A stretch of 64,000 nt of DNA from Deltaproteobacteria bacterium. Its GTDB lineage: Bacteria > Myxococcota_A > Polyangia > HGW-17 > JAJRWW01. Position 1 is the stretch's first letter. Each line of letters starts with the position of its first letter. The position numbers and the translations under genes are program-made. This document shows, piece by piece, positions 4,657 to 62,943 of the stretch. The notes under the pieces are model-generated. The model did not search any database. It saw nothing but the letters and a program-made list of their open reading frames with translations, and had not been told where the DNA came from. The stretch spans positions 26,592 to 90,591 of the forward strand of contig JAOZUO010000003.1 in the NCBI GenBank assembly GCA_029938605.1. Reading direction: 5' to 3'.

Positions 4657-5148
4657 ATGTACAGACTGTGCTCTCTGATGTTTCTGCTCGCTGGGCCGGG
4701 CGATGCTTCGCCGCTTCCCTCGGCGGAGCTGCCGAGCTACGGAGGGTTACTTCTAAAAACCATTCTGGCGCTGGTGATCGTCATCGGGCTGGCCTACGCG
4801 CTGCTGCGCTGGGGGCTCAAACGACTGATGCCCGGGCACGCGTCCGGTGGTGGCGAGATCAGCATTCTGGATCGGCAGCCCTTGGACAGCCGCCGCCAGG
4901 TGGTGCTGGTCAAAGCCTACGGGCGTTACCTGCTGCTGGGCGTGGGGGACGGATCGGTCACGCTCCTGACAGAGCTGGAGGCCGAAGCGGTGGCCGAGGC
5001 CGAGCGACGACGGGCGGCCCATCCCCCGAAGCGCTTCGCCGACGTGCTGCGCTCGGCCCTGGGGCGTAACAAACCTCCCCCCGAGCCCATCACCCCCAGC
5101 GACCACAGCGATGATCGCCAGGCTGACAAGGACCGGCGCGATGAATAG
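4657..5148 (+). CDS. fliO: flagellar-type export apparatus protein, FliO-like
   Basis: Single TM helix (ILALVIVIGLAYALL) followed by the FliO-like motif EISILDRQPLDSRRQVVLVKAYGRYLLLGVGDGSVTLLTEL. Sits immediately upstream of fliPQR. Confidence 0.55.
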   Translation: MYRLCSLMFLLAGPGDASPLPSAELPSYGGLLLKTILALVIVIGLAYALLRWGLKRLMPGHASGGGEISILDRQPLDSRRQVVLVKAYGRYLLLGVGDGSVTLLTELEAEAVAEAERRRAAHPPKRFADVLRSALGRNKPPPEPITPSDHSDDRQADKDRRDE

Positions 5149-5306
5149 GGTCCGACCAGGAATAGGCCGGTCAGCTCAGGTCGTCGAGGCGCCCCGGTGG
5201 CAAGGACCAAGGAGCGAGGAAATCTCCATGATTCCGAGTGACGAGGGACGCAGTCAGCGGGGATGGATCGGCGGGCTGAGCGATCTGCCTATTGCTGGTC
5301 GGACCC
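5145..5306. repeat. ~160-bp imperfect palindromic element with 16-bp terminal inverted repeats (family A/B), between fliO and fliP
   Basis: The 5' end gggtccgaccaggaat is the reverse complement of the 3' end att(g)ctggtcggaccc. It is ~88% identical to 10900-11062. It contains ggagcgagga-N7-ATG (5211-5230) in frame with fliP. Confidence 0.75.
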
Positions 5307-5311
5307 ATAGA

Positions 5312-7213: not shown

Positions 7214-9460
7214 ATGGGAAAATGGGAAAAGCTCGCGGATGACATCGAAGACGAAGAGGCGCATACCAAGGTGCCCGAGTTCGAAGACTCAGTGGTGGAC
7301 GTGGTGGATCCAGCAGACGTCACCATGCCGCCAGAGATCCACGGCTGTCAGGTGATCGAGCGGCGCCATCCGGGCGGACAGTCGGAAGTGTTCTACTGCC
7401 GGCCTGACGGCGTGGTCTACTCCGAAGTCCAGGCCACCGAGCTCATGAATGCTTTCCGGGCCGGTGCGGCGGCTGGCGGCCCGCCAGCGGTTAGCGGCCC
7501 GGCGGCCGACATGGTCATCGACACCCTCGGCTCCGGAGAGGACGTGCCCGCGCAGCTCCGAGGCGCGAAGCTGGTGGACCGGGGGGGGAGCTTCTTTTTC
7601 ATCACGGTCGATGGCGGGGAGCTGCCCAAGGAGATAGGCGACAGCCTCTTTGAGGCCTTCGAATCCCCCGAGGTCACCAACCCGGGACTGGAGGTCAAGG
7701 CCGCCGACCTGCCTCAGGAATCCATGCCGGCGCCTCTGCCCACCGAAACGGTCATCGACACCCTGGGCGACGGTCCGGACGTACCTCCGGCGCTCCGCGG
7801 CGCGAACCTGGTGGAGCGGGACGGTAGCTTCTTTTTCATAACACCGGACCAGGAGGCCATCCCCAAGGAGATCGGCGACGATCTGTTCGACGCCTGGGAT
7901 GCGCCGGAAGAGGGGGAGGCCGTCCCCCAGGAACAACCAGCCGCGCCAACGCCGGAGGCTGAGGTACAAGCGCCTGAACCCCAGGCTCAAGAGCCGGAGC
8001 CGGAGCCGGAGCCAGAGCCGGAGCCGGAGCCGGAACCTGAACCCGCACCAGCGCCAGAGTCGGAGGCAGAGGTTCAAGAGCCAGCACCAGCACCAGCGCC
8101 AGAGGCGGAAGCGGAGCCAGAGCCAGAGCCAGAGCCGGAGCCGGAACCAGAGCCGGAGCCGGAGCCGGAACCAGAGCCGGAGCCGGAGCCGGAGCCGGAA
8201 TCAGAACCAGAACCAGAACCAGAACCAGAGGCGGAAGCGGAGCCAGAAGCGGAAGCGGAAGCGGAAGCGGAAGCAAGCAGCCCTGGACCGGAGGAGGAGA
8301 TCCTGGAGTTCCTCGGCACCGGGGAAGAGGTCCCGCCGAGGCTTCGAGGCGGCCGCATGGTCAAACGGGTAGACGGCTTCTATTACGTGACAGCGAACAA
8401 CGAAGTCCTCCCGGCCGATATCGGCGAGGACCTCATTGAGGCCTGGAACTCCGAGGCGGAAGCGGAACCTCCCCCGGCCGACGACCGGGAACCCAACCCC
8501 GTGAACAAACCCTTCGGCTACGGCGACTACGGACCGGTCACCGTCCCGAACTACGTCCTGCCCGAGACCATCGACGTACCCCAGTCAGCCGCTCCAACGG
8601 GGCCGAGCGCCGCGCCCACCGCCGACGAGCCCACCGCCGACGAGCCTACCGCCGACGAACCCACCGCCGACGAGCCCACCGCCGACGAACCCACCGCCGA
8701 CGAGCCCATCGTCGACGAACCCAAAGTCGAGGCAACCTCCGCTCCAGTCACCGAGAAGCTGGAGGCCGGGAGTCTGGAAGATCGGCTCAGACAAGCCGTG
8801 ACCACCGTCCGACGGGAGGCGACCACGGGGGCCTTCAATGTGGCCCAAGCCACCCCCACGCCCGAGCAAATGGAGTCGCTGGTGAACGAGCTCATCGACT
8901 CCGAGCCCACAGACACCATGCTCTCACGCATGGTACTTCGCTCCACCCAACTGACCGAGCAGATCTCCGAAGCCTGGGCGGACGACGAGAGCCGGGGCCG
9001 CCAGGCTCTGCACCGGGACGTAGTCAGCGGCACCTTGCTCGTAGTCGCCGTGAACCCAACCCAACTCAAGGACCTGGATGTGCTCGGCCTGCTCACCCTC
9101 CTTCGCTTTCGCACCACGAAAGGGACCGACCGGGTGGTGGCCGAATTGGCCAAGACCCTACGCTCCAAGCTGGCCGACGATCTCAACCGAGCCATCAAGG
9201 CCTCCTCCCTCACCGACCAGGTCCTGCAGGGCGCACGATCTACGGCCGGCGTCGTCGTCCATGGACAGCTATGGCCCGAGGGGGTCACCCTCCTGGTCGC
9301 CCAGACCATTACCCGCGAGATCTCTCTGACCGTAGGTGAGGTATTGAGCGGCTATCGGGAGAAGGGATACGCCTTCCCGGGCCTTGCGGAAAAGGTCCTC
9401 GAAGCCTATCGTCACTTCGCGACGGATATCGGCGAACGAGTGGCCCGTGCCATCGAGTAG
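7214..9460 (+). CDS. large acidic repeat protein of unknown function
   Basis: 748 aa. It has three tandem ~55-aa repeats ([49 protein letters not shown] and two variants), a long (PE)n/(EPEA)n tract, six PTADE repeats, and a ~230-aa C-terminal region that is not low-complexity. Confidence 0.7.
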
Positions 9461-10899: not shown

Positions 10900-11062
10900 A
10901 ATAGGGTCCGACCAGGAACAAGCAGGTCTGTTCAGGTCGTCGAGGCGCCCCGCTGGCAAGGACAGAGGAGCGAGGAAATCTCATTGATTCCGAGTAACGA
11001 GGGACGCAGTCAGCGGGGATGGATCGGCGGACTGGGCGATCTGGTTATTCCTGGTCGGGCCC
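10900..11062. repeat. second copy of the family A/B imperfect palindromic element, between the two paralogous lipoprotein genes
   Basis: ~88% identical to 5145-5306. TIRs are gggtccgaccaggaac / attcctggtcgggccc. Carries gaggaaatctcaTTG in frame with the downstream gene. Confidence 0.75.
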
Positions 11063-11940
11063 TTAGCCGATGGTCCTTCGGCCTGATCGTCTTCGCTGGG
11101 CTGGTACTAGCCGACGGTGGCTGCTCCAAGAGTCGGGCGGACGATTTCTCGAAGTTCAAGCCGTCAGAGTCCCTCCAGTCCCCGGGCGCCACTCCGCGTA
11201 CGCAGCTACGCTATCGCCCCCCCGCGGGCCAGGACGTGACCTACCAGCTCATCGTGAACCGTCAGTGCCAAGCCCTCGGCCTCCAGGCGAAGATGCGGCT
11301 GCGGGTGGCCTTGAAGGTGGACACCCTGAGCAGCGGTGGAGGCTCCTTTGTGCTGCGCTTGATCAGCCTACAGCGACTGCAACCCCTTCCCCCCGGCGGG
11401 CTGCCTGAGCTGGGACCCGCCTACGTACTGCTCCAGGGCCGAATCGGACCTCGGGGACGATTGACCGAAATTCAGGACGGCGACAGGTTGCCCACACCGG
11501 TGAACCTCGCCCTCGTGTTGCCGCTGCTGCTGCCCCGTTTGCCCGAGTCCTCCGTGGGCATCGGCGCCACCTGGCGCACGTCGGCTAAGCAGCGCTGGAA
11601 GCGCGTCCATTCCGCCGACGCGCTCACCAGCCAGCCGGGCTTCAACGGCTCCACGGAGGTGCTGCTGCACAGCGCCTACAAGCTCACCGCGCTGCAAAAC
11701 GCCAACCAACCCGTGCTCCAGGGCGACCTCAGTTTCAAGCTCCGCAGCCGCACCCGCGCCCTGAGCCACGCTACCCACCATGGAGGTCAAGGCAAAGCCA
11801 CGGCGCGCTACGTTCTGGACCCCACCACCTCTCTCCCCGTCCACGCCAAGGTCACCCTCCAAGGCACGTACAAGCTACACGCCAACGACAAAACCGCCCC
11901 CATCAAAGAGACCATCGAGCTAACCTTCAAACAGGACTGA
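10984..11940 (+). CDS. lipoprotein, paralog 2. The start is uncertain; a TTG inside the repeat element is the first in-frame start.
   Basis: Same frame as track ORF 10849-11940. Has a hydrophobic leader SFGLIVFAGLVLADGGC and TQLRYRPPAGQ resembling paralog 1. No ATG or GTG lies between the repeat and the leader. Confidence 0.45.
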   Translation: MIPSNEGRSQRGWIGGLGDLVIPGRALSRWSFGLIVFAGLVLADGGCSKSRADDFSKFKPSESLQSPGATPRTQLRYRPPAGQDVTYQLIVNRQCQALGLQAKMRLRVALKVDTLSSGGGSFVLRLISLQRLQPLPPGGLPELGPAYVLLQGRIGPRGRLTEIQDGDRLPTPVNLALVLPLLLPRLPESSVGIGATWRTSAKQRWKRVHSADALTSQPGFNGSTEVLLHSAYKLTALQNANQPVLQGDLSFKLRSRTRALSHATHHGGQGKATARYVLDPTTSLPVHAKVTLQGTYKLHANDKTAPIKETIELTFKQD

Positions 11941-22957: not shown

Positions 22958-23565
22958 CGTCTCGCAGCCTCACAGCCTCGCAGCGCACTGCATATCCGCT
23001 GAAGGCCCCACGCGGGGAGACGGATCTCTGAATAAGGTCCAAACCGGCAGAAATCGATGTACTTCGTTTTCAGCAGAGTTTCTCCCTGATAAAGAAAAAA
23101 ATCCGAACACCCAGACGTCAGGGGTCACCCACACCGCCAGCGCTACGCACCAGGCTCGCGGTCAACGGCGTGTCAGTACAGTGAGGGCGGAGGAGGATAA
23201 TCGGACGCCAAAGACGTGCTCCACTGCGGCGAGGCAGACGAACGTCGCCACCGGTGGTTCCGCCGCCGGGCAGACGGCCGGCAGGGACCACCGGAACTTC
23301 CCAACTGGGGCCCACCGGCGCTGAAGCGAACGTCGCCCAATCCGGTACTCAGGGATCCCGTGGGCTGTCCCGTCGTGGATCGGCACCCTTCGCAGCTCAC
23401 AGCGGGCGCATACCTGTCTAGGTGCCCAAACCGCATTCCCGATGGTTGAATCCTTGGGTTTTTCCCCGACTGCGCCAACCGCTGGTGAAAAAACTCATCC
23501 CAGCACCACCGATGTTCTCGCCGCCGCCGACACCTACGTCGACCAGCGCTTAGTGGCCGTTGAAT

Positions 23566-23752
23566 GTTTCACTTTTTCGCCAGATAAATCACCTCTGCCA
23601 AATCTGAAACAGAAAGGGCCCTTTGGTGTTCCACTTTCGGCCCAGATGCGTCATCTCAGCCAAATCTGAAATAGATTTGGCCCTTTGGTGTTCCACTTTC
23701 CCGTCAGATAAATCATCCCAACCGATTCTGAAACAAATCTCCGCTGACAGAG
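23566..23752. repeat. ~62-bp tandem repeat x3, each unit carrying a hairpin (ccaaatctgaaatagatttgg), inside a 1.2-kb non-coding region
   Basis: The units begin gtttcactttttcgccagataaatc..., gttccactttcggcccagatgcgtc... and gttccactttcccgtcagataaatc.... The palindrome in the central unit is perfect. Confidence 0.6.

Positions 23753-30614: not shown

Positions 30615-30615
<1 letters not shown>
29941..30615 (+). CDS. clpP: ATP-dependent Clp protease proteolytic subunit
   Basis: [24 protein letters not shown]...NSPGG...[12 protein letters not shown]...IMIHQP with the Ser-His-Asp catalytic triad context. The true start may be an internal ATG at ~29977. Confidence 0.9.
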
Positions 30616-31859
<1,244 letters not shown>

Positions 31860-34649: not shown

Positions 34650-34721
34650 GGGCGGGTAGCTCAGTGGGAGAGCGTCGGCCTTACAAGCCGAGGGTCACAG
34701 GTTCAAGCCCTGTTCCGCCCA
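34650..34721 (+). tRNA. tRNA-Val (anticodon TAC)
   Basis: Cloverleaf: acceptor GGGCGGG/TCCGCCC, D-arm GCTC-AGTGGGA-GAGC, anticodon arm TCGGC-CTTACAA-GCCGA, T-arm ACAGG-TTCAAGC-CCTGT. Confidence 0.85.
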
Positions 34722-34738: not shown

Positions 34739-34812
<74 letters not shown>

Positions 34813-34879: not shown

Positions 34880-35056
34880 GGCTAAGGGCCCGCTCGAATA
34901 TTAGTTGTCCAGTTCAGGGCGTTGAGGCGCCCGGCTCGCGAGGCACGACGAGGCGCATACTTATTGATATGCAACGAGAAGTAACGAAGCGAGCCAGCGA
35001 TGCATCGGCGGCCTGAGTGATCAAGTAATATTCGATCGGGTCCTAAGGGCCCTAAT
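34880..35056. repeat. ~175-bp imperfect palindromic element (family C/D), second copy, downstream of the tRNA pair
   Basis: Shares the 74-nt core (34921-34995) with 2019-2178 in inverted orientation. Its arms end in gggccc-containing termini and are self-complementary at ~65%. Confidence 0.7.
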
Positions 35057-39817: not shown

Positions 39818-40110
39818 TCGCTCGCTTAGCCCCCGCTACGGATGTTCCCCTTGCCGCTCCAGCGGGGCGCTGCAAGAGCGGCTGCGGAGAAATCCTCCAC
39901 GGGGGCGACGCTCGCTGGGTGGTGCTTACACGGAAATTTGCGAGGCATACGATACTCGATGATACGCGCTGTGCCGCTCGCTTAGCCCCCGTTCCGGATG
40001 TTCCCCTTGCCGCTCCAGCGGGGCGCTGCAAGAGCGGCTGCGGAGAAATCCTCCACGGGGGCGACGCTCGCTGGGTGGTGCTTACACGGAAATTTGCGAG
40101 GCATACGATC
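39818..40110. repeat. tandem direct repeat, 2 x 156 bp, in the cooC-acsE intergenic region
   Basis: The unit ctcgcttagcccccg(c/t)t(a/c)cggatgttccccttgccgctccagcggggcgctgcaagagcggctgcggagaaatcctccacgggggcgacgctcgctgggtggtgcttacacggaaatttgcgaggcatacgat recurs at 39821 and 39977. Each unit holds the hairpin gccgctc...gagcggc. Confidence 0.8.
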
Positions 40111-40174
40111 AACGGAGCGGACGCGGAGCGGACTATCCGAGCTCGGTAACGAGGAAAACGGCTCTACATAAGTG

Positions 40175-40262
40175 AGCGGAGCCCGCACGGAGGATTTCAC
40201 GGCAGCCGCTCTCGCAGCGCTTCGCTGGAGCGGCAGAGTGAATCCTTCGTGTGGGCGAAGCG
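40175..40262. repeat. partial third copy of the 156-bp unit, in inverted orientation
   Basis: cggaggatttcacggcagccgctctcgcagcgcttcgctggagcggcagagtgaatcc is the reverse complement of the unit core with a few substitutions. Confidence 0.65.
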
Positions 40263-40325
40263 AACGGTTCTACGGCGGGATCTACAGCCCGAAGGTGTGT
40301 TTTGAGGGAGGCTGGGGGGGGGGAG

Positions 40326-54375: not shown

Positions 54376-55488
54376 ATGGCGAGAGCTGAGCCAAATATCA
54401 TTCCAGAGGGTCTGCGGCCCCTCGAAGGGCGCTGTGGCGACCTCTGGGATCTGAACCTGTTTCGGGAGTGCGGCTGCGGCTGTCTCACCTGCTCCGGTGA
54501 CACGAAGGACAGCCCCGACAAAGCTGCGCCCCAGGCGAGCTTCTACGACTACACCCGCTCTCGGAACATGCTCGGCACCCCGGACGGGCTAGGCCTCAAT
54601 CGGCATCTGCCTCAGCAGCTGCAAGCGTGGATCCGTTCCCTTGGAGAGGACCGGCCGAGCTTCGTTACCCTGGGCTATTCCGTCGAGCCCTTGCCCGGGT
54701 TCCCCGAGGCCGAAGAGATCCTGGACCAGTGCCTGCGGGTGATCTTTGGGGCGTCCATCGGGGTTTCGTTGCAGACGCGACGCCTGGTGCCCGAACGGAT
54801 CCTGGACACCCTGGGCGACCACGCCCCCCTGGCACGGGTTTCCCTCCCTCTACCCACCCTGTCTGACGCTGAGCTGAAACTCTGGGAACCGGGCACGGCC
54901 CTGGCGAATCAACGACTGTGGAACGCGCAGCAGCTACGGTTGCGGCGGGTGGAGGTGACTCTCTCCATCCAGGCGCTCATCCCCTACGTCAATGATGATC
55001 GTGCCCATCTGGCCCCCCTGGTGGGCGCGGCGGCCGACGTGGGGGTGGCGCGCCTGACCGCGGAGTTCATGCGACTCACCCCCACCGTACGCGCGCGCCT
55101 GGAGGCTCGATCCCCGGTGTCCACCCAGCTCATCTTCGGCGCCTATGTACGGCGGGAGCTGGACCACAGACAGGATTGGAGCCTCCCAAACCTGAACCGG
55201 CGCCGGACCGTGTATCGCCTCCTGGCGAACCTGGCCGCCAAACGCCGGCTGCGGTTCTCCCTGTGTCGCTGCGCAGACCCTCTGTTGGGCCGTCATTCCT
55301 GCGCGCTGTGGCCTGGCGACACCCCTGGGCCGGCCCCAAGGCCAGAGACCAAGATGGAAATCAAGATGGAAACCGAGCCAGGATCCCAGCCGGAGCCCAC
55401 GCGACAGTCGCGTGCACGCACCCATCGTCGCCCCATGCGAGCAGCGTCCCAGGTAGGTTTTTCCGAATTCTTCGACAGCAAGCAATAG
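54376..55488 (+). CDS. possible radical SAM domain protein (SplB/photolyase-like), uncertain
   Basis: A CX3CX2C arrangement (C-GCG-C-LT-C) near the N-terminus. Start taken at MARAEP (54376) within track ORF 54193-55488. Confidence 0.35.
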   Translation: MARAEPNIIPEGLRPLEGRCGDLWDLNLFRECGCGCLTCSGDTKDSPDKAAPQASFYDYTRSRNMLGTPDGLGLNRHLPQQLQAWIRSLGEDRPSFVTLGYSVEPLPGFPEAEEILDQCLRVIFGASIGVSLQTRRLVPERILDTLGDHAPLARVSLPLPTLSDAELKLWEPGTALANQRLWNAQQLRLRRVEVTLSIQALIPYVNDDRAHLAPLVGAAADVGVARLTAEFMRLTPTVRARLEARSPVSTQLIFGAYVRRELDHRQDWSLPNLNRRRTVYRLLANLAAKRRLRFSLCRCADPLLGRHSCALWPGDTPGPAPRPETKMEIKMETEPGSQPEPTRQSRARTHRRPMRAASQVGFSEFFDSKQ

Positions 55489-55546
55489 ACAGCGGCCTCC
55501 TCTTTCGTCATAACGGAGCGGGACCGACGCTTCGGACGTCGCCTAG

Positions 55547-55706
55547 TTCCCACCCCAGAAGTGGGTTCGAAGCGAAAACGTGCCAGGTGCGTCGGTTGTG
55601 CATTACCAGATCTTGTGGTTGTACCGGGTGTACTACCCCAGATCTGGTGGTGTGCAGACGGCGTGCCTGGTGCGCTTGCAGCCGAAGTCCACTTCTGGGG
55701 TGGGAA
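55547..55706. repeat. 160-bp imperfect palindromic element (third family) immediately upstream of pcnB
   Basis: Perfect 17-bp termini tcccaccccagaagtgg / ccacttctggggtggga. The arms are ~65% self-complementary. Inner palindrome ccagatct...agatctgg. Confidence 0.65.
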
Positions 55707-55716
55707 CTGTTTACCA

Positions 55717-57051
55717 ATGTCCACACTGTCTATTGAAATCGAACCGGAAAAAATCGACGCCGACGCCGACAAGGTAGTACGGCGTCTCCAGCGGCACGGT
55801 TACGAGGCCTACCTGGTGGGTGGCTGCGTGCGGGACCTGCTGCTCGGCTGCTCGCCCAAGGACTTCGACGTCGCCACCTCGGCTACCCCCAACGAGGTTC
55901 GCGGGCTCTTTCGGAACTCGCGCGTCATCGGTCGCCGCTTCCGACTGGTGCACATCTTCTTCGGGCCCAAAATCATCGAAACGGCCACCTTCCGGCAAAA
56001 CCCGCGGCCCGAGACCGACAGCGCAAACACCGACGCCGACAAGGACACCAGCACCAACACCGACGCCGACGACGACGCGCTGCTCATTCGCCGGGACAAC
56101 GTCTGGGGCACGGCGCAGGACGACGCCCTCCGCCGGGACTTCACCCTCAACGGCCTGTTCTACGATCCTGTAAAATGCGAGGTCATTGACTTCGTCGAAG
56201 GCTTGGGCGACCTGGCGAACCGCTCCATCGCCACCATCGGGGCTCCGGACATCCGCTTCCTGGAGGACCCGGTGCGTATCCTGCGAGCCATCAAGTTCGC
56301 CGCCCGCCTGGACCTGTCCATAGAGCCACGCACCTTGGAGGCCCTCAAGGAGCACGTGGACCGGATCATGGCCTGCGCCCATGCGCGGGTCCTCGAAGAG
56401 ATCTATCGACTCCTGCGAGAAGGCGCCTCGGCGCAGGCGATGACGCTGCTGGAAGAGACGGGCGTCCGCGCAGTGCTGTTCCCCGAGCTCGACTGTGTGG
56501 CCGCGGACCCCGACCGATGGGATCGGCTGATGACCCGCCTGACGGCGCTGGACACACTGGCCAAAGAGACCTCGCTCACCCGACCGCTCTCCAACCCCGT
56601 GCTCATCGGAGCGCTGTACTTCGATACGATCCTCGATAGCCGACGACTCTTCGGCCCCGGGGTGGACGGGCCCACCGAGCTGGTGGAGGGGCTGCGGTCC
56701 GTGCTGTCCGAGTGGGTTCCCTCCCGCAGGGACCGGGACCGAACGCGGCAGATCCTCATGGCCCAGCGGCGCCTGCGGCCCAGCGAAAGCCACAGCAACG
56801 GCGACAGCAGCAAAAAGAAACGTAGCCGCCGCCGCCCCATGGCGCTGGCATCCCAGGAGTACTTCCACGAGGCCCTCACGCTGCATCGGCTCCTGTGCCA
56901 GACCGGCGAGGCGGACTCGTCAACCCTGGACAAGTGGATGACCCTGGCGGAGTCCATCCCACCCCCCACCTCCGAAAGAGGCCAACGCCGACGCGGCCGC
57001 CAGTCCCACCGAAGGCGAAGACCCCGACACCGCGGCGGCAAGGACAGGTAG
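55717..57051 (+). CDS. pcnB: poly(A) polymerase I / tRNA nucleotidyltransferase family
   Basis: Pol-beta NTase head (YLVGGCVRDLLLG...KDFDVAT), Arg-rich C-terminal tail typical of PcnB. Confidence 0.75.
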   Translation: MSTLSIEIEPEKIDADADKVVRRLQRHGYEAYLVGGCVRDLLLGCSPKDFDVATSATPNEVRGLFRNSRVIGRRFRLVHIFFGPKIIETATFRQNPRPETDSANTDADKDTSTNTDADDDALLIRRDNVWGTAQDDALRRDFTLNGLFYDPVKCEVIDFVEGLGDLANRSIATIGAPDIRFLEDPVRILRAIKFAARLDLSIEPRTLEALKEHVDRIMACAHARVLEEIYRLLREGASAQAMTLLEETGVRAVLFPELDCVAADPDRWDRLMTRLTALDTLAKETSLTRPLSNPVLIGALYFDTILDSRRLFGPGVDGPTELVEGLRSVLSEWVPSRRDRDRTRQILMAQRRLRPSESHSNGDSSKKKRSRRRPMALASQEYFHEALTLHRLLCQTGEADSSTLDKWMTLAESIPPPTSERGQRRRGRQSHRRRRPRHRGGKDR

Positions 57052-59185: not shown

Positions 59186-61489
59186 TCAGGAAGCCGTTGG
59201 GTCTGGGCGCTCATCTTCTACGCCCTCGCCATCTGGAGTCAGGTCGTCCACCTCCAGCAGCTCAGTGGTCTCGTTGTGAATGACTGGCTGCAGGGGAGGT
59301 GCAACCGTCTGGTCAGTGCCGGCCGTAAGGTCCGTGTCGATCGCCGGGTCCGAGGGGACCGCCGGATTCGCGCCGGCCATAGAATCCGCGTTGGCCGTCG
59401 GGTCAGTCCCGGCCGTCGGGTCAGTCCCGGCCGTCGAATCCGCGTTGGCCTTCAAGTCCATGCCGGCCTTGTGCTCAGCGCTGGCCTTCAGGTCCATACC
59501 GGCCTTGTGCTCAGCGCTGGCCTTCAGGTCCATGCCGGCCTTGTGCTCAGCGTTGGCAGCAAGGTCCGTATCAGTGGTCGGATCATGGGTGCCCTCCAGG
59601 TTCGCGCCGGCCGCACGGTCCGTGTCGGTCGCAGGGTCCGAGGGGACCTCCGAGTTCGTGCCGGCCTCCGGGTTCGTGCCGGCCTCCGGGTTCGTGCCGG
59701 CTTCCGGGTAGGTCGCGGCCTCGTTCTCGAGGTCGCCCACTTCGAGCAGCGCCGTGGCATCGTCCGACAGAGACGGCTGAGGCGGCTGAGACGGTAGACC
59801 GGAACCGGAGTCTTCGATCTGAGCCGTGGGGAGCTCATGGAAGCTCACGGGCGACAAGGGCGTGTCGGAGTTGGACTTGCCCTCTAGATCCGCCAGGTCC
59901 GGGTCCGCTGGGTCCAGCCCGGGATCCAGCCCGGCGTCCGGGGCAGCCACCAACGGCATCTCCGCCGTATCCGGGGCCACCGGTCGCTGCCGCCGGGCCA
60001 CACGATCGGCAGACTGCTGTATGGCTTCCCGGTTTGCCTCCAGGTCCAGAATGACGGTGTTGGCCGTGTGCAGACCGACACCGCTCGGTCCCGGAGCCGG
60101 AGCCGGCCCCGGACCCGGGGTCGGGGGCAATGTGGGCTCAGTGGCAGGGGATTGAACGTCAGGCTGAGCCTTGGCCTGAGCCTCGGGTTCTGCCTCGGGT
60201 TGCGCCGAGACCCGGGCCACCTCGCCAAAGCCATCGCCCTTGCTCCACAGCACCTCCGACACAGGTTGCAACACCTCGGGATTGGTGGATTCGAGCCGCC
60301 GGATCCCGCTGTTGTCGAGGATCACCGTGGGCTCGGCCGACATTGCCGGGTCGTGCACCCGAGAGCCTCCACCGTCGCCCACCTCCACCTCGCCGTCCCG
60401 CGGGGGCTGCATGAACTCGCCCTCCTCCGCTCCGGCAGGAATGGGCGAGAACTTGGAGAAGTCAGCATCCGGACCCAGGGCATCGGCGATGAGATTCGTG
60501 CCGATCTTGGTGCTGTCGGCGCTGTCGACCACAAACTCTTCGAGGGCCCGCAACTCCTTTTCGATGTCTTCGGCGAAGAGCTGCCGCACAAACCGTCCCA
60601 GGTGAGACCGGGTGAGATCCGGCGCGTGTACCACCAGGAAGTTGTGCAGGGCGTTGGCGAAGTCCTCGGCGGTCTGGTAGCGATCCGACGGCTTGCGGCT
60701 CATGGCCGTGTCCGCGATGGCCGCCAGGGCCGGCGGGATCATGGGATTGCGCTCTCGCACGGGGGTGTAGCGCGTCTCCCGCACCAGCACCAGCAGCTCC
60801 ATCTCGTTGGGCGCCAGGAAGGGCGGCACCCGGGTCAACAGCTCGTAGAGCACCGACCCCCCGGAGAAGATGTCCGTGCGGGGATCCAGCTTGCGCCCCA
60901 TGGCCTGCTCCGGGCTCATGTACTTGACCTTGCCCTTGATCACCCCGGAGCGGGTCTGCACGGTGGAGAGGGTCGCCTTGGCGATGCCGAAGTCACAGAG
61001 CTTCACCTCGCCGGCGTAGGAGCAGATCACATTGGACGGGCTCACGTCCCGGTGAATGAGATGGAGCGGCCGCCCCTCCCGGTCTTTCTGTATGTGCGCC
61101 TGATGCAGCCCCCGCATGATGTGCATCATGATGAAGGCGCAGATCTCCTGCGGGATCCAGCGACGCTGCGCCCGACAGCGGTCCAAGATCGTTCGGCCGT
61201 CCTTGCCGTCCACGTACTCCATGGCGATGAAATACTCACCGTGGGCGAAGCAAAACTCGTAGACCCGGGCGATGGACTCGTGCTCCATGAGGCTCGTGAT
61301 CTTCGCCTCGTCCACGAGCATCTTGATAAACTCCTCGTCCCGGGCGAGGTGGGACAGGATCCGCTTCACCGCCACCATATGCACCCGCCCCTCCTCGTCG
61401 AAGGTCTTGGCGCGATAGATCTCCGCCATGCCGCCGAAGGCGATCCGATCCAACAGGTGATATCGACCGAGCTGTAGCGCTTTTGCCAT
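59186..61489 (-). CDS. Ser/Thr protein kinase with a ~500-aa disordered repetitive C-terminal region
   Basis: Complete Hanks kinase domain (GGMAEIYRA, AVKRI, HRDVSPSNV, DFG, SPEQ). The C-terminus has SAEHKAGMDLKA x3 and GTNPEA x3. Start at MAKALQLGRY (61489). Confidence 0.8.
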   Translation of the reverse strand: MAKALQLGRYHLLDRIAFGGMAEIYRAKTFDEEGRVHMVAVKRILSHLARDEEFIKMLVDEAKITSLMEHESIARVYEFCFAHGEYFIAMEYVDGKDGRTILDRCRAQRRWIPQEICAFIMMHIMRGLHQAHIQKDREGRPLHLIHRDVSPSNVICSYAGEVKLCDFGIAKATLSTVQTRSGVIKGKVKYMSPEQAMGRKLDPRTDIFSGGSVLYELLTRVPPFLAPNEMELLVLVRETRYTPVRERNPMIPPALAAIADTAMSRKPSDRYQTAEDFANALHNFLVVHAPDLTRSHLGRFVRQLFAEDIEKELRALEEFVVDSADSTKIGTNLIADALGPDADFSKFSPIPAGAEEGEFMQPPRDGEVEVGDGGGSRVHDPAMSAEPTVILDNSGIRRLESTNPEVLQPVSEVLWSKGDGFGEVARVSAQPEAEPEAQAKAQPDVQSPATEPTLPPTPGPGPAPAPGPSGVGLHTANTVILDLEANREAIQQSADRVARRQRPVAPDTAEMPLVAAPDAGLDPGLDPADPDLADLEGKSNSDTPLSPVSFHELPTAQIEDSGSGLPSQPPQPSLSDDATALLEVGDLENEAATYPEAGTNPEAGTNPEAGTNSEVPSDPATDTDRAAGANLEGTHDPTTDTDLAANAEHKAGMDLKASAEHKAGMDLKASAEHKAGMDLKANADSTAGTDPTAGTDPTANADSMAGANPAVPSDPAIDTDLTAGTDQTVAPPLQPVIHNETTELLEVDDLTPDGEGVEDERPDPTAS

Positions 61490-61728
61490 GGGGACTCCTA
61501 CAGTAACCCGAGTGGAGGTCCGCCGTCGACTGGGATTCGACTGTTTGTGTAAGGGTCCGCGAATGGACAACTCCGTCGCCCTAGCCGCCGATCCATCCCG
61601 CTGGGCGGCCATCATCGATCGAGTTGTCTATTCGCGGACCCTAAGTCTACTCTACGGGCTTGCCGCGGACGCTGGTTCATGTCATGGATACGTTCTGCGG
61701 CTGGCCACCGGCCCGAGGATATGGCAAC

Positions 61729-62943
<1,215 letters not shown>

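Follow-up and report, generated by a model that had tools for sequence, protein, structure and literature searches.

The window, i.e., the whole stretch of 64,000 nucleotides that was analysed, carries a long palindrome between two genes of the same strand, the second of which is pcnB (Table 1). The identity of pcnB, already proposed in the original prediction, is confirmed by NCBIfam, as the product passes TIGR01942 with 327.5 bits (cut-off 305.65); its closest named homologues, at about 50% identity, are from Polyangia, Haliangiales and Deltaproteobacteria MAGs. The stop codon of the upstream gene is located 57 nt 5' of the element. The pcnB start codon, correctly placed 10 nt past position 55706 by the original prediction, follows 8 nt past the 20-nt arm that ends the element. 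A GTG codon at 55561 opens a 496-residue open reading frame (55561-57051), which crosses the element in the frame of pcnB, and gene callers could wrongly add 52 residues to PcnB in this way. This reading frame should not be read as an amino-terminal extension of PcnB. The gene calls in the relatives start at the ATG matching the one at 55717, and conservation among relatives starts exactly at this codon. At gathering thresholds, an Rfam search of the whole window returns two tRNAs only, and a permissive Rfam search of the element region returns only sub-threshold matches to generic miRNA hairpin models.

Table 1. Coordinates in the window of the pcnB locus, of the element and its parts, and of the other palindromes.
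Feature	Position	Strand or orientation	Remarks
Upstream gene, 370 aa in the gene calls of relatives	54376-55488	+	weak radical-SAM-like matches
Possible pcnB promoter, TAGACA-17 nt-CATAAC	55486-55514	+	read by eye; conserved among relatives
Element, complete copy of the very probable MITE, 164 bp	55545-55708	+	aligns with the metagenome copies at 89-91%; this strand folds more stably as a single strand
Left terminal inverted repeat AGTTCCCACCCCAGAAGTGG, 20 nt	55545-55564	+	100% complementary to 55689-55708; nearly invariant in 8 of 8 copies
Apical part of the hairpin	55606-55647	+	holds ccagatct (55606-55613) and agatctgg (55640-55647)
Right terminal inverted repeat CCACTTCTGGGGTGGGAACT	55689-55708	+	pairs with the left arm
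pcnB, poly(A) polymerase, 444 aa	55717-57051	+	Pfam PolyA_pol, PolyA_pol_RNAbd; NCBIfam TIGR01942
Family A, about 150 bp, two copies 86% identical	2032-2179, 34883-35032	inverted	termini AGGGTCCG...CGGACCCT; TTA on both flanks
Family C, about 167 bp, two copies 89% identical	5144-5310, 10900-11066		termini GGGTCCGACCAGG...; flanks ATA/ATA and ATA/TTA
91-bp palindrome	61552-61642		GGGTCCG termini; TAA on both flanks; flanked by a Ser/Thr kinase gene and a clpX paralogue

The palindrome is real and its predicted fold is far beyond chance. The original prediction had it end in perfect 17-bp termini at 55547 and 55706; the termini are indeed perfect, but this interval corresponds to inner arms of 18 nt, the full inverted repeat being 20 nt long (55545-55708). 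The two 20-nt arms are separated by 124 nt; this interior is imperfectly palindromic too and contains the ccagatct/agatctgg repeat noted before. When up to three mismatches are allowed, the 18-mer arm TTCCCACCCCAGAAGTGG and its reverse complement give two matches in the window, against 0.05 expected, and none of 100 shuffles gave two matches. In an ungapped comparison of the arms of the whole element, 51 of 82 positions form Watson-Crick pairs, about the 65% self-complementarity of the halves claimed at the DNA level, and 12 more form G:T pairs. The checks suggested alongside these claims included fold prediction, a search for further copies and a comparison of the regions upstream of pcnB in relatives. 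The first bears the palindrome out, the second yields dispersed copies, and the last goes against a conserved regulator of pcnB, as described below.

As RNA, the + strand of the element is predicted to fold into a single uninterrupted hairpin with 70 pairs, including 11 G:U pairs. Its folding energy is -116.5 kcal/mol, compared to -62.3 +/- 4.8 kcal/mol for shuffled sequences (z -11.4), and 0 of 200 shuffles folded as well. The fold of the - strand is weaker, at -88.7 kcal/mol and with two G:U pairs. The 164 bp of the element leave no room to encode a transposase. Together with a 4-bp duplication of the target, the element adds 168 bp, or 56 codons, and it is stop-free in five of its six reading frames; an insertion within a gene would usually preserve the frame, a property that can be compared to that of the Rickettsia palindromic elements. 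Both the length of 56 codons and the stop-free frames may be a coincidence in G+C-rich DNA, and none of the eight element copies is intragenic.

A metagenome scan matched 16 loci, seven of which, all from JGI metagenome Ga0272441, hold full-length copies of 164 nt. These copies are located on seven contigs, at unrelated intergenic sites. Aligned with the window copy, they reach 89-91% identity in one orientation and about 72-75% in the opposite one, which gives the element family a defined polarity; over the seven copies and the window copy, the mean column identity is 97%. Contig Ga0272441_10000427 of the same metagenome is syntenic with the window, with CbiA-like, FolD, radical-SAM-like, PcnB, methyltransferase, OmpA, kinase, ClpX and DksA genes in shared order; its PcnB is 74% identical, and there is no element at its pcnB gene. 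As Ga0272441 contains this syntenic contig and also the other repeat families of the window, the copies most likely come from a relative of the window's organism.

According to Pfam, the genes flanking the copies encode an alpha/beta hydrolase, an MG2-domain protein, a Ser/Thr kinase, a PCC-domain protein, an M48 peptidase, UbiA, an ARMT1-like protein and a SpoIID-domain protein. Every copy is located between genes, several of them 3-15 nt past a stop codon, in agreement with a target that contains TA when the genome has 65-70% G+C. With respect to the local genes, three copies are in sense orientation (window, L022 and L027) and three in antisense orientation (L015, L016 and L018); L024 lies between convergent genes and L013 is unassigned, so there is no bias overall. 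In L022, a terminator-like hairpin (gaggggacc-tctgc-gggtcccctc, 8000-8040 of that locus) is present right after the copy, between two genes of the same strand. A scan of species-representative genomes with the 18-mer arm gave eight lone matches, scattered over unrelated taxa and never as a pair of arms; we regard these as chance matches, and the one from Myxococcales (L010) is not a palindrome. No match to the element was obtained in a scan of viral contigs, nor by blastn against plasmids.

The flanks of the Ga0272441 copies record how the element was inserted. A perfect 4-bp direct duplication is present in six of the seven: aact in L018, agct in L022 and L015, agtt in L016, and atct in L027 and L013. 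In the remaining copy, L024, acct on the left and agct on the right differ by one mismatch. The left repeat is always preceded by a T and the right repeat always followed by an A, giving a target of about cT-ANYT-Ag. Two models describe these junctions equally well, a 4-bp ANYT duplication with element ends AGTT...AACT, or a 6-bp TANYTA duplication with ends GTT...AAC. They give an identical empty site, and the duplication is perfect in six of seven copies for the first and in five of seven for the second. An IS5-like model (CTAG duplication, element TTCCC...GGGAA) and an 8-bp duplication CTANCTAG were rejected, as each leaves mismatches in five of seven copies, mostly at the outer positions.

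The copy in L018 is nested in a third copy of family A (L018 318-463, 84% identical), which it interrupts. Upon removal of the element and one AACT, this sequence becomes colinear with the uninterrupted family-A copies of the window. The empty site has a single AACT, which directly indicates that the insertion duplicated its target. A DDE-type transposase, acting in trans, would recognise the termini and make a staggered cut. In the window and in the roughly 250 kb of fetched loci, we observe neither an autonomous insertion sequence with matching termini nor a cognate transposase. A 1.1-kb repeat (30634-31762 and 61745-62855), considered as a candidate transposase, is actually a pair of clpX paralogues with zf-C4_ClpX and AAA_2 domains (30615-31859 and 61660-62943; 69% nucleotide identity over 1.1 kb).

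At the pcnB site itself, the junctions are different. The window copy, with flanks ...GTCGCCT and GTTTACC..., has no recognisable duplication. The empty sites read GTCGACT followed by TGATAACC in L001 and ..CGACCTGAG.. in L031, and neither a 4-bp nor a 6-bp duplication fits the window copy when L001, L004 and L031 are taken as empty sites. Alignment of the junctions suggests that the element of the window and of L029 sits between a T and a G, with nothing duplicated. The 8 nt to the right of the window element differ from L001 far above the background of 3%. That the element lies 8 nt before the pcnB ATG is very probably due to chance, the insertion having hit a short intergenic stretch that contains TA.

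Eight loci, taken as the nearest PcnB relatives, were compared at the pcnB site (L001-L004, L029 and L030-L032). Only L029, with 98.0% DNA identity over 6.5 kb and a PcnB that differs by one residue, contains the element; its gap between upstream gene and pcnB is 228 bp, as in the window. The L029 copy (2375-2538) has the same junctions and is 99.4% identical, its one substitution, G65A, breaking a pair of the hairpin. The element is absent from L001, which has 96.7-97.6% DNA identity, four different residues in PcnB and a gap of 65 bp. It is also absent from L002, L003 and L004 (80-92% DNA identity; gaps of 86, 83 and 64 bp, respectively) and from L030, L031 and L032 (PcnB 74-78% identical; gaps of 60-64 bp). 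In alignment A1, the window has 164 bases more than L001, L002, L003 and L004. The element is thus a presence/absence polymorphism inside one species-level group, absent at this site in seven relatives, and a recent insertion 8 nt 5' of the pcnB ATG, in sense orientation. Because close relatives lack the element, pcnB works without it; we therefore regard the element as selfish DNA that is tolerated at this site and affects expression incidentally, if at all.

Other palindromes of the window (Table 1) share GGGTCCG...CGGACCC termini and 3-bp TWA flanks (TTA, ATA and TAA). They comprise families A and C and the 61552-61642 palindrome, which looks like a shorter relative of the two families. They resemble the pcnB element in belonging to the same genome, in mostly being 148-167 bp long (one is 91 bp), in forming a hairpin over their whole length and in being intergenic. 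The pcnB element differs from them in its AGTTCCCACC... termini and 4-6-bp duplication, and a self-BLAST of the window gave no similarity between them. The original prediction that it may be one more member of a palindromic-element superfamily holds in so far as it is a dispersed, mobile, MITE-type repeat; with different termini and duplication, however, it constitutes a separate family. The distinct termini and duplication make it likely that it uses a different transposase. Both systems co-occur in Ga0272441, where, besides the nested copy in L018, a family-C fragment (L024 5134-5183) is located 14 nt from a copy of the pcnB-type element.

Some further repeats were noted in the window. The family-A copy at 34883-35032 follows closely on two tRNA genes (34650-34721 and 34739-34812). 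Between 39819 and 40266, a 135-bp unit is repeated directly with 98.5% identity (39819-39953 and 39975-40109), and a partial inverted copy of it, 78-83% identical, is found at 40171-40266. Diverged direct repeats (71-89%) detected by self-BLAST at 7506-8275, 8608-8723, 23565-23733 and 59318-59720 are probably internal repeats of coding sequences.

The hairpin is not equivalent on its two strands. Eight out of eight copies fold 15-28 kcal/mol better in the + orientation, with 7-11 G:U pairs per copy on one strand and 2-4 on the other. Folded with DNA parameters, the element is asymmetric as well (-56.6 vs -48.8 kcal/mol). Families A and C are similarly asymmetric, the RNA folds of the two family-C copies being -104 vs -75 and -97 vs -66 kcal/mol by strand; the 61552-61642 palindrome shows no asymmetry, both its strands folding equally at -60 kcal/mol. 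In simulations in which a perfect palindrome decays neutrally until it is as degraded as the element, the strand difference has a standard deviation of 9.3 kcal/mol, and a difference of 26.8 kcal/mol is reached in 0.3% of the runs. Such asymmetry is not what a purely DNA-level parasite would predict. It may be due to selection on the single-stranded form or to a founder effect, both readings being compatible with the data. A covariation analysis of the eight copies gives zero compensatory pairs, the copies being too similar for either inference on selection at the RNA level. That the elements are selected as single-stranded molecules of one polarity, be it as functional RNAs such as substrates of a double-strand RNase or as a strand-specific single-stranded DNA intermediate of transposition, with the pcnB copy as an exapted leader tying poly(A) polymerase expression to that pathway, seems to us decidedly unlikely.

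Whether the element is transcribed together with pcnB depends on the sequence just upstream of it. The region 55440-55544, which spans about 45 nt at the 3' end of the upstream gene plus the initial 55 nt of the spacer, is almost invariant down to 74% PcnB identity. It includes the TAGACA and CATAAC hexamers, which are invariant among relatives, with the middle of the 17-nt spacer between them variable; it also holds a small CGACG-loop-CGTCG hairpin. A consensus promoter scan did not call this pair, the second hexamer of which is without the final T, and a promoter and terminator scan of the + strand of 55300-55800 gave no site at or beside the element. Judging from its conservation, the region 55440-55544 is probably the promoter and leader of pcnB. 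With this strongly conserved promoter-like block just upstream, the element is probably located in the transcribed leader and probably forms part of the pcnB 5' untranslated region.

In the predicted fold of 55515-55760, the element hairpin forms as a self-contained unit. The predicted unstructured leader 5' of the pcnB ATG is 8 nt with the element, versus about 40 weakly structured nt in L001, and the pcnB start codon has no Shine-Dalgarno sequence. Transcription from the conserved promoter-like block would run through the element into pcnB. The resulting hairpin of about 70 bp (about -115 kcal/mol) in the 5' untranslated region would most likely reduce access of the ribosome to the start codon, be cleaved by a double-strand-specific RNase (RNase III), as for Correia elements in Neisseria, or both; cleavage by RNase III of mRNA containing Correia elements has been described (PMC10969869). 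An incidental effect of the hairpin on pcnB expression is plausible in such a model.

MITEs have been defined by a size below 500 bp, terminal inverted repeats (4-30 bp), direct repeats on their flanks and transcripts that form stable stem-loops (PMC10969869). The pcnB element is 164 bp long with terminal inverted repeats of 20 bp, occurs as dispersed copies with duplications, contains no transposase gene and is strain-specific in its presence; its predicted fold is a stem-loop. We consider it highly probable that the palindrome is a MITE inserted 5' of pcnB, a selfish insertion and not a designed regulator. Judged by its termini and duplication, which are unlike those of the other palindromes of the window, it represents a new MITE family. 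A literature search turned up no MITE from Myxococcota. The element is thus a further instance of a well-known kind, the MITE, and the family itself is new.

Among known systems, Correia elements (CREE/NEMIS) resemble the pcnB element: they are non-coding and about 100-160 bp long, have terminal inverted repeats (about 20-26 bp) and occur in many intergenic copies at strain-variable sites. Their target duplication is TA; the pcnB element, which has no sequence relationship to them, has a 4-6-bp duplication around ANYT. Correia elements also carry promoters and an IHF site, while the pcnB element shows no promoter-like site. ERIC elements (about 127 bp) and the related Yersinia palindromes are likewise intergenic and imperfectly palindromic from end to end. 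ERIC is from another phylum, has different termini and is flanked by TA, not ANYT; for ERIC, an orientation-dependent RNase E effect has been reported. In its likely mode of action, the pcnB element is comparable to Correia, ERIC and other MITEs that are palindromic along their full length; it is set apart from both families by its flanks (ANYT, not TA) and by its termini, which differ from those of the two families.

Correia elements often lie just 5' of genes and are co-transcribed into long hairpins that RNase III cuts at the termini (PMC10969869; PMC3184786). ERIC-type elements, with terminal inverted repeats, target duplications and TA flanks, are transcribed into hairpins able to alter mRNA stability (PMC3184786). 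MITEs of the Chunjie and Nezha types, which are thought to be derived from insertion sequences (PMC3184786 Table 1; PMC10969869), share the general MITE architecture with the pcnB element. They differ in having identified parent insertion sequences; none was found for the pcnB element in the sequence examined. Other classes of structured element were also considered. The + strand scan found no intrinsic terminator at the element, the tail of which reads GUUUACC and not a run of U. A retron msr/msd would be expected beside a reverse transcriptase gene at a single-copy locus; the neighbours are the radical-SAM-like gene and pcnB, and the element is multicopy with duplications.

Alternative explanations differ in what they take the hairpin to be for. 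A MITE could have been kept by selection at this site, with its hairpin tuning pcnB by way of RNase III processing, blocked translation or a more stable mRNA. The element is co-oriented with pcnB, which is the orientation of the stronger RNA fold, lies close to the ATG and downstream of the conserved promoter-like block, and is common to two strains, those of the window and L029. The window copy has 70 pairs versus 67-68 for the consensus, several C-to-T changes preserve G:U pairs, and MITEs are known to change the expression of neighbouring genes (PMC10969869). Such exaptation is nevertheless unlikely, given that the element is missing from a strain of 97% identity as well as from the more distant relatives, that the G65A change in L029 breaks a pair, that sense and antisense copies of the family are equal in number (three each) and that there are no compensatory changes. 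A conserved cis-regulatory RNA of pcnB, be it a riboswitch, attenuator or thermosensor, would agree with a very stable predicted hairpin immediately 5' of the start codon. The regulatory structure entertained in the original prediction is not supported as a dedicated, conserved regulator of this kind: the orthologous site is empty in seven relatives, including the roughly 97% identical L001; near-identical copies are present beside alpha/beta hydrolase, MG2-domain, UbiA, M48, ARMT1-like and SpoIID-domain genes; and Rfam gives nothing above threshold, only the generic miRNA-hairpin matches, with no compensatory pair. Barring misassembled relatives, the comparative data refute this reading, and we consider it extremely improbable.

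Two further explanations concern the nature of the mobile or multicopy unit. A hairpin spanning the whole element, a fold that is strand-asymmetric with DNA parameters too, and a window copy without target duplication might all be expected of a single-stranded DNA hairpin element moved by a tyrosine (HUH) transposase, of REPIN/RAYT type or derived from IS200/IS605, instead of a DDE-type MITE. HUH elements are not known to make a target duplication. The perfect, site-variable direct duplications in six of the seven other copies and the single copy of the target at the L018 empty site therefore make this very unlikely; a gene for RAYT or TnpA is also absent from the examined sequence. The element could instead be a multicopy gene for a structured non-coding RNA, a small RNA or a precursor of double-stranded RNA, the genomic spread of which would be secondary. 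All copies have a G:U-rich stem that is strand-specific, an asymmetry unlikely under neutral decay. Yet there is no promoter- or terminator-like site in or beside the element, no orientation bias with respect to neighbouring genes and no covariation, and the target duplications indicate transposition, leaving the RNA gene highly improbable.

For annotation, a selfish MITE 5' of pcnB implies that mobile repeat is the appropriate label for the palindrome, rather than regulatory element of pcnB. The analysis documents a minimum of two unrelated MITE systems, which occur in nested form, in an uncultured lineage of high G+C content. The alleles with and without the element 5' of pcnB, a dosage-sensitive gene, form a natural pair for testing the effect of a 70-bp hairpin in a 5' untranslated region.
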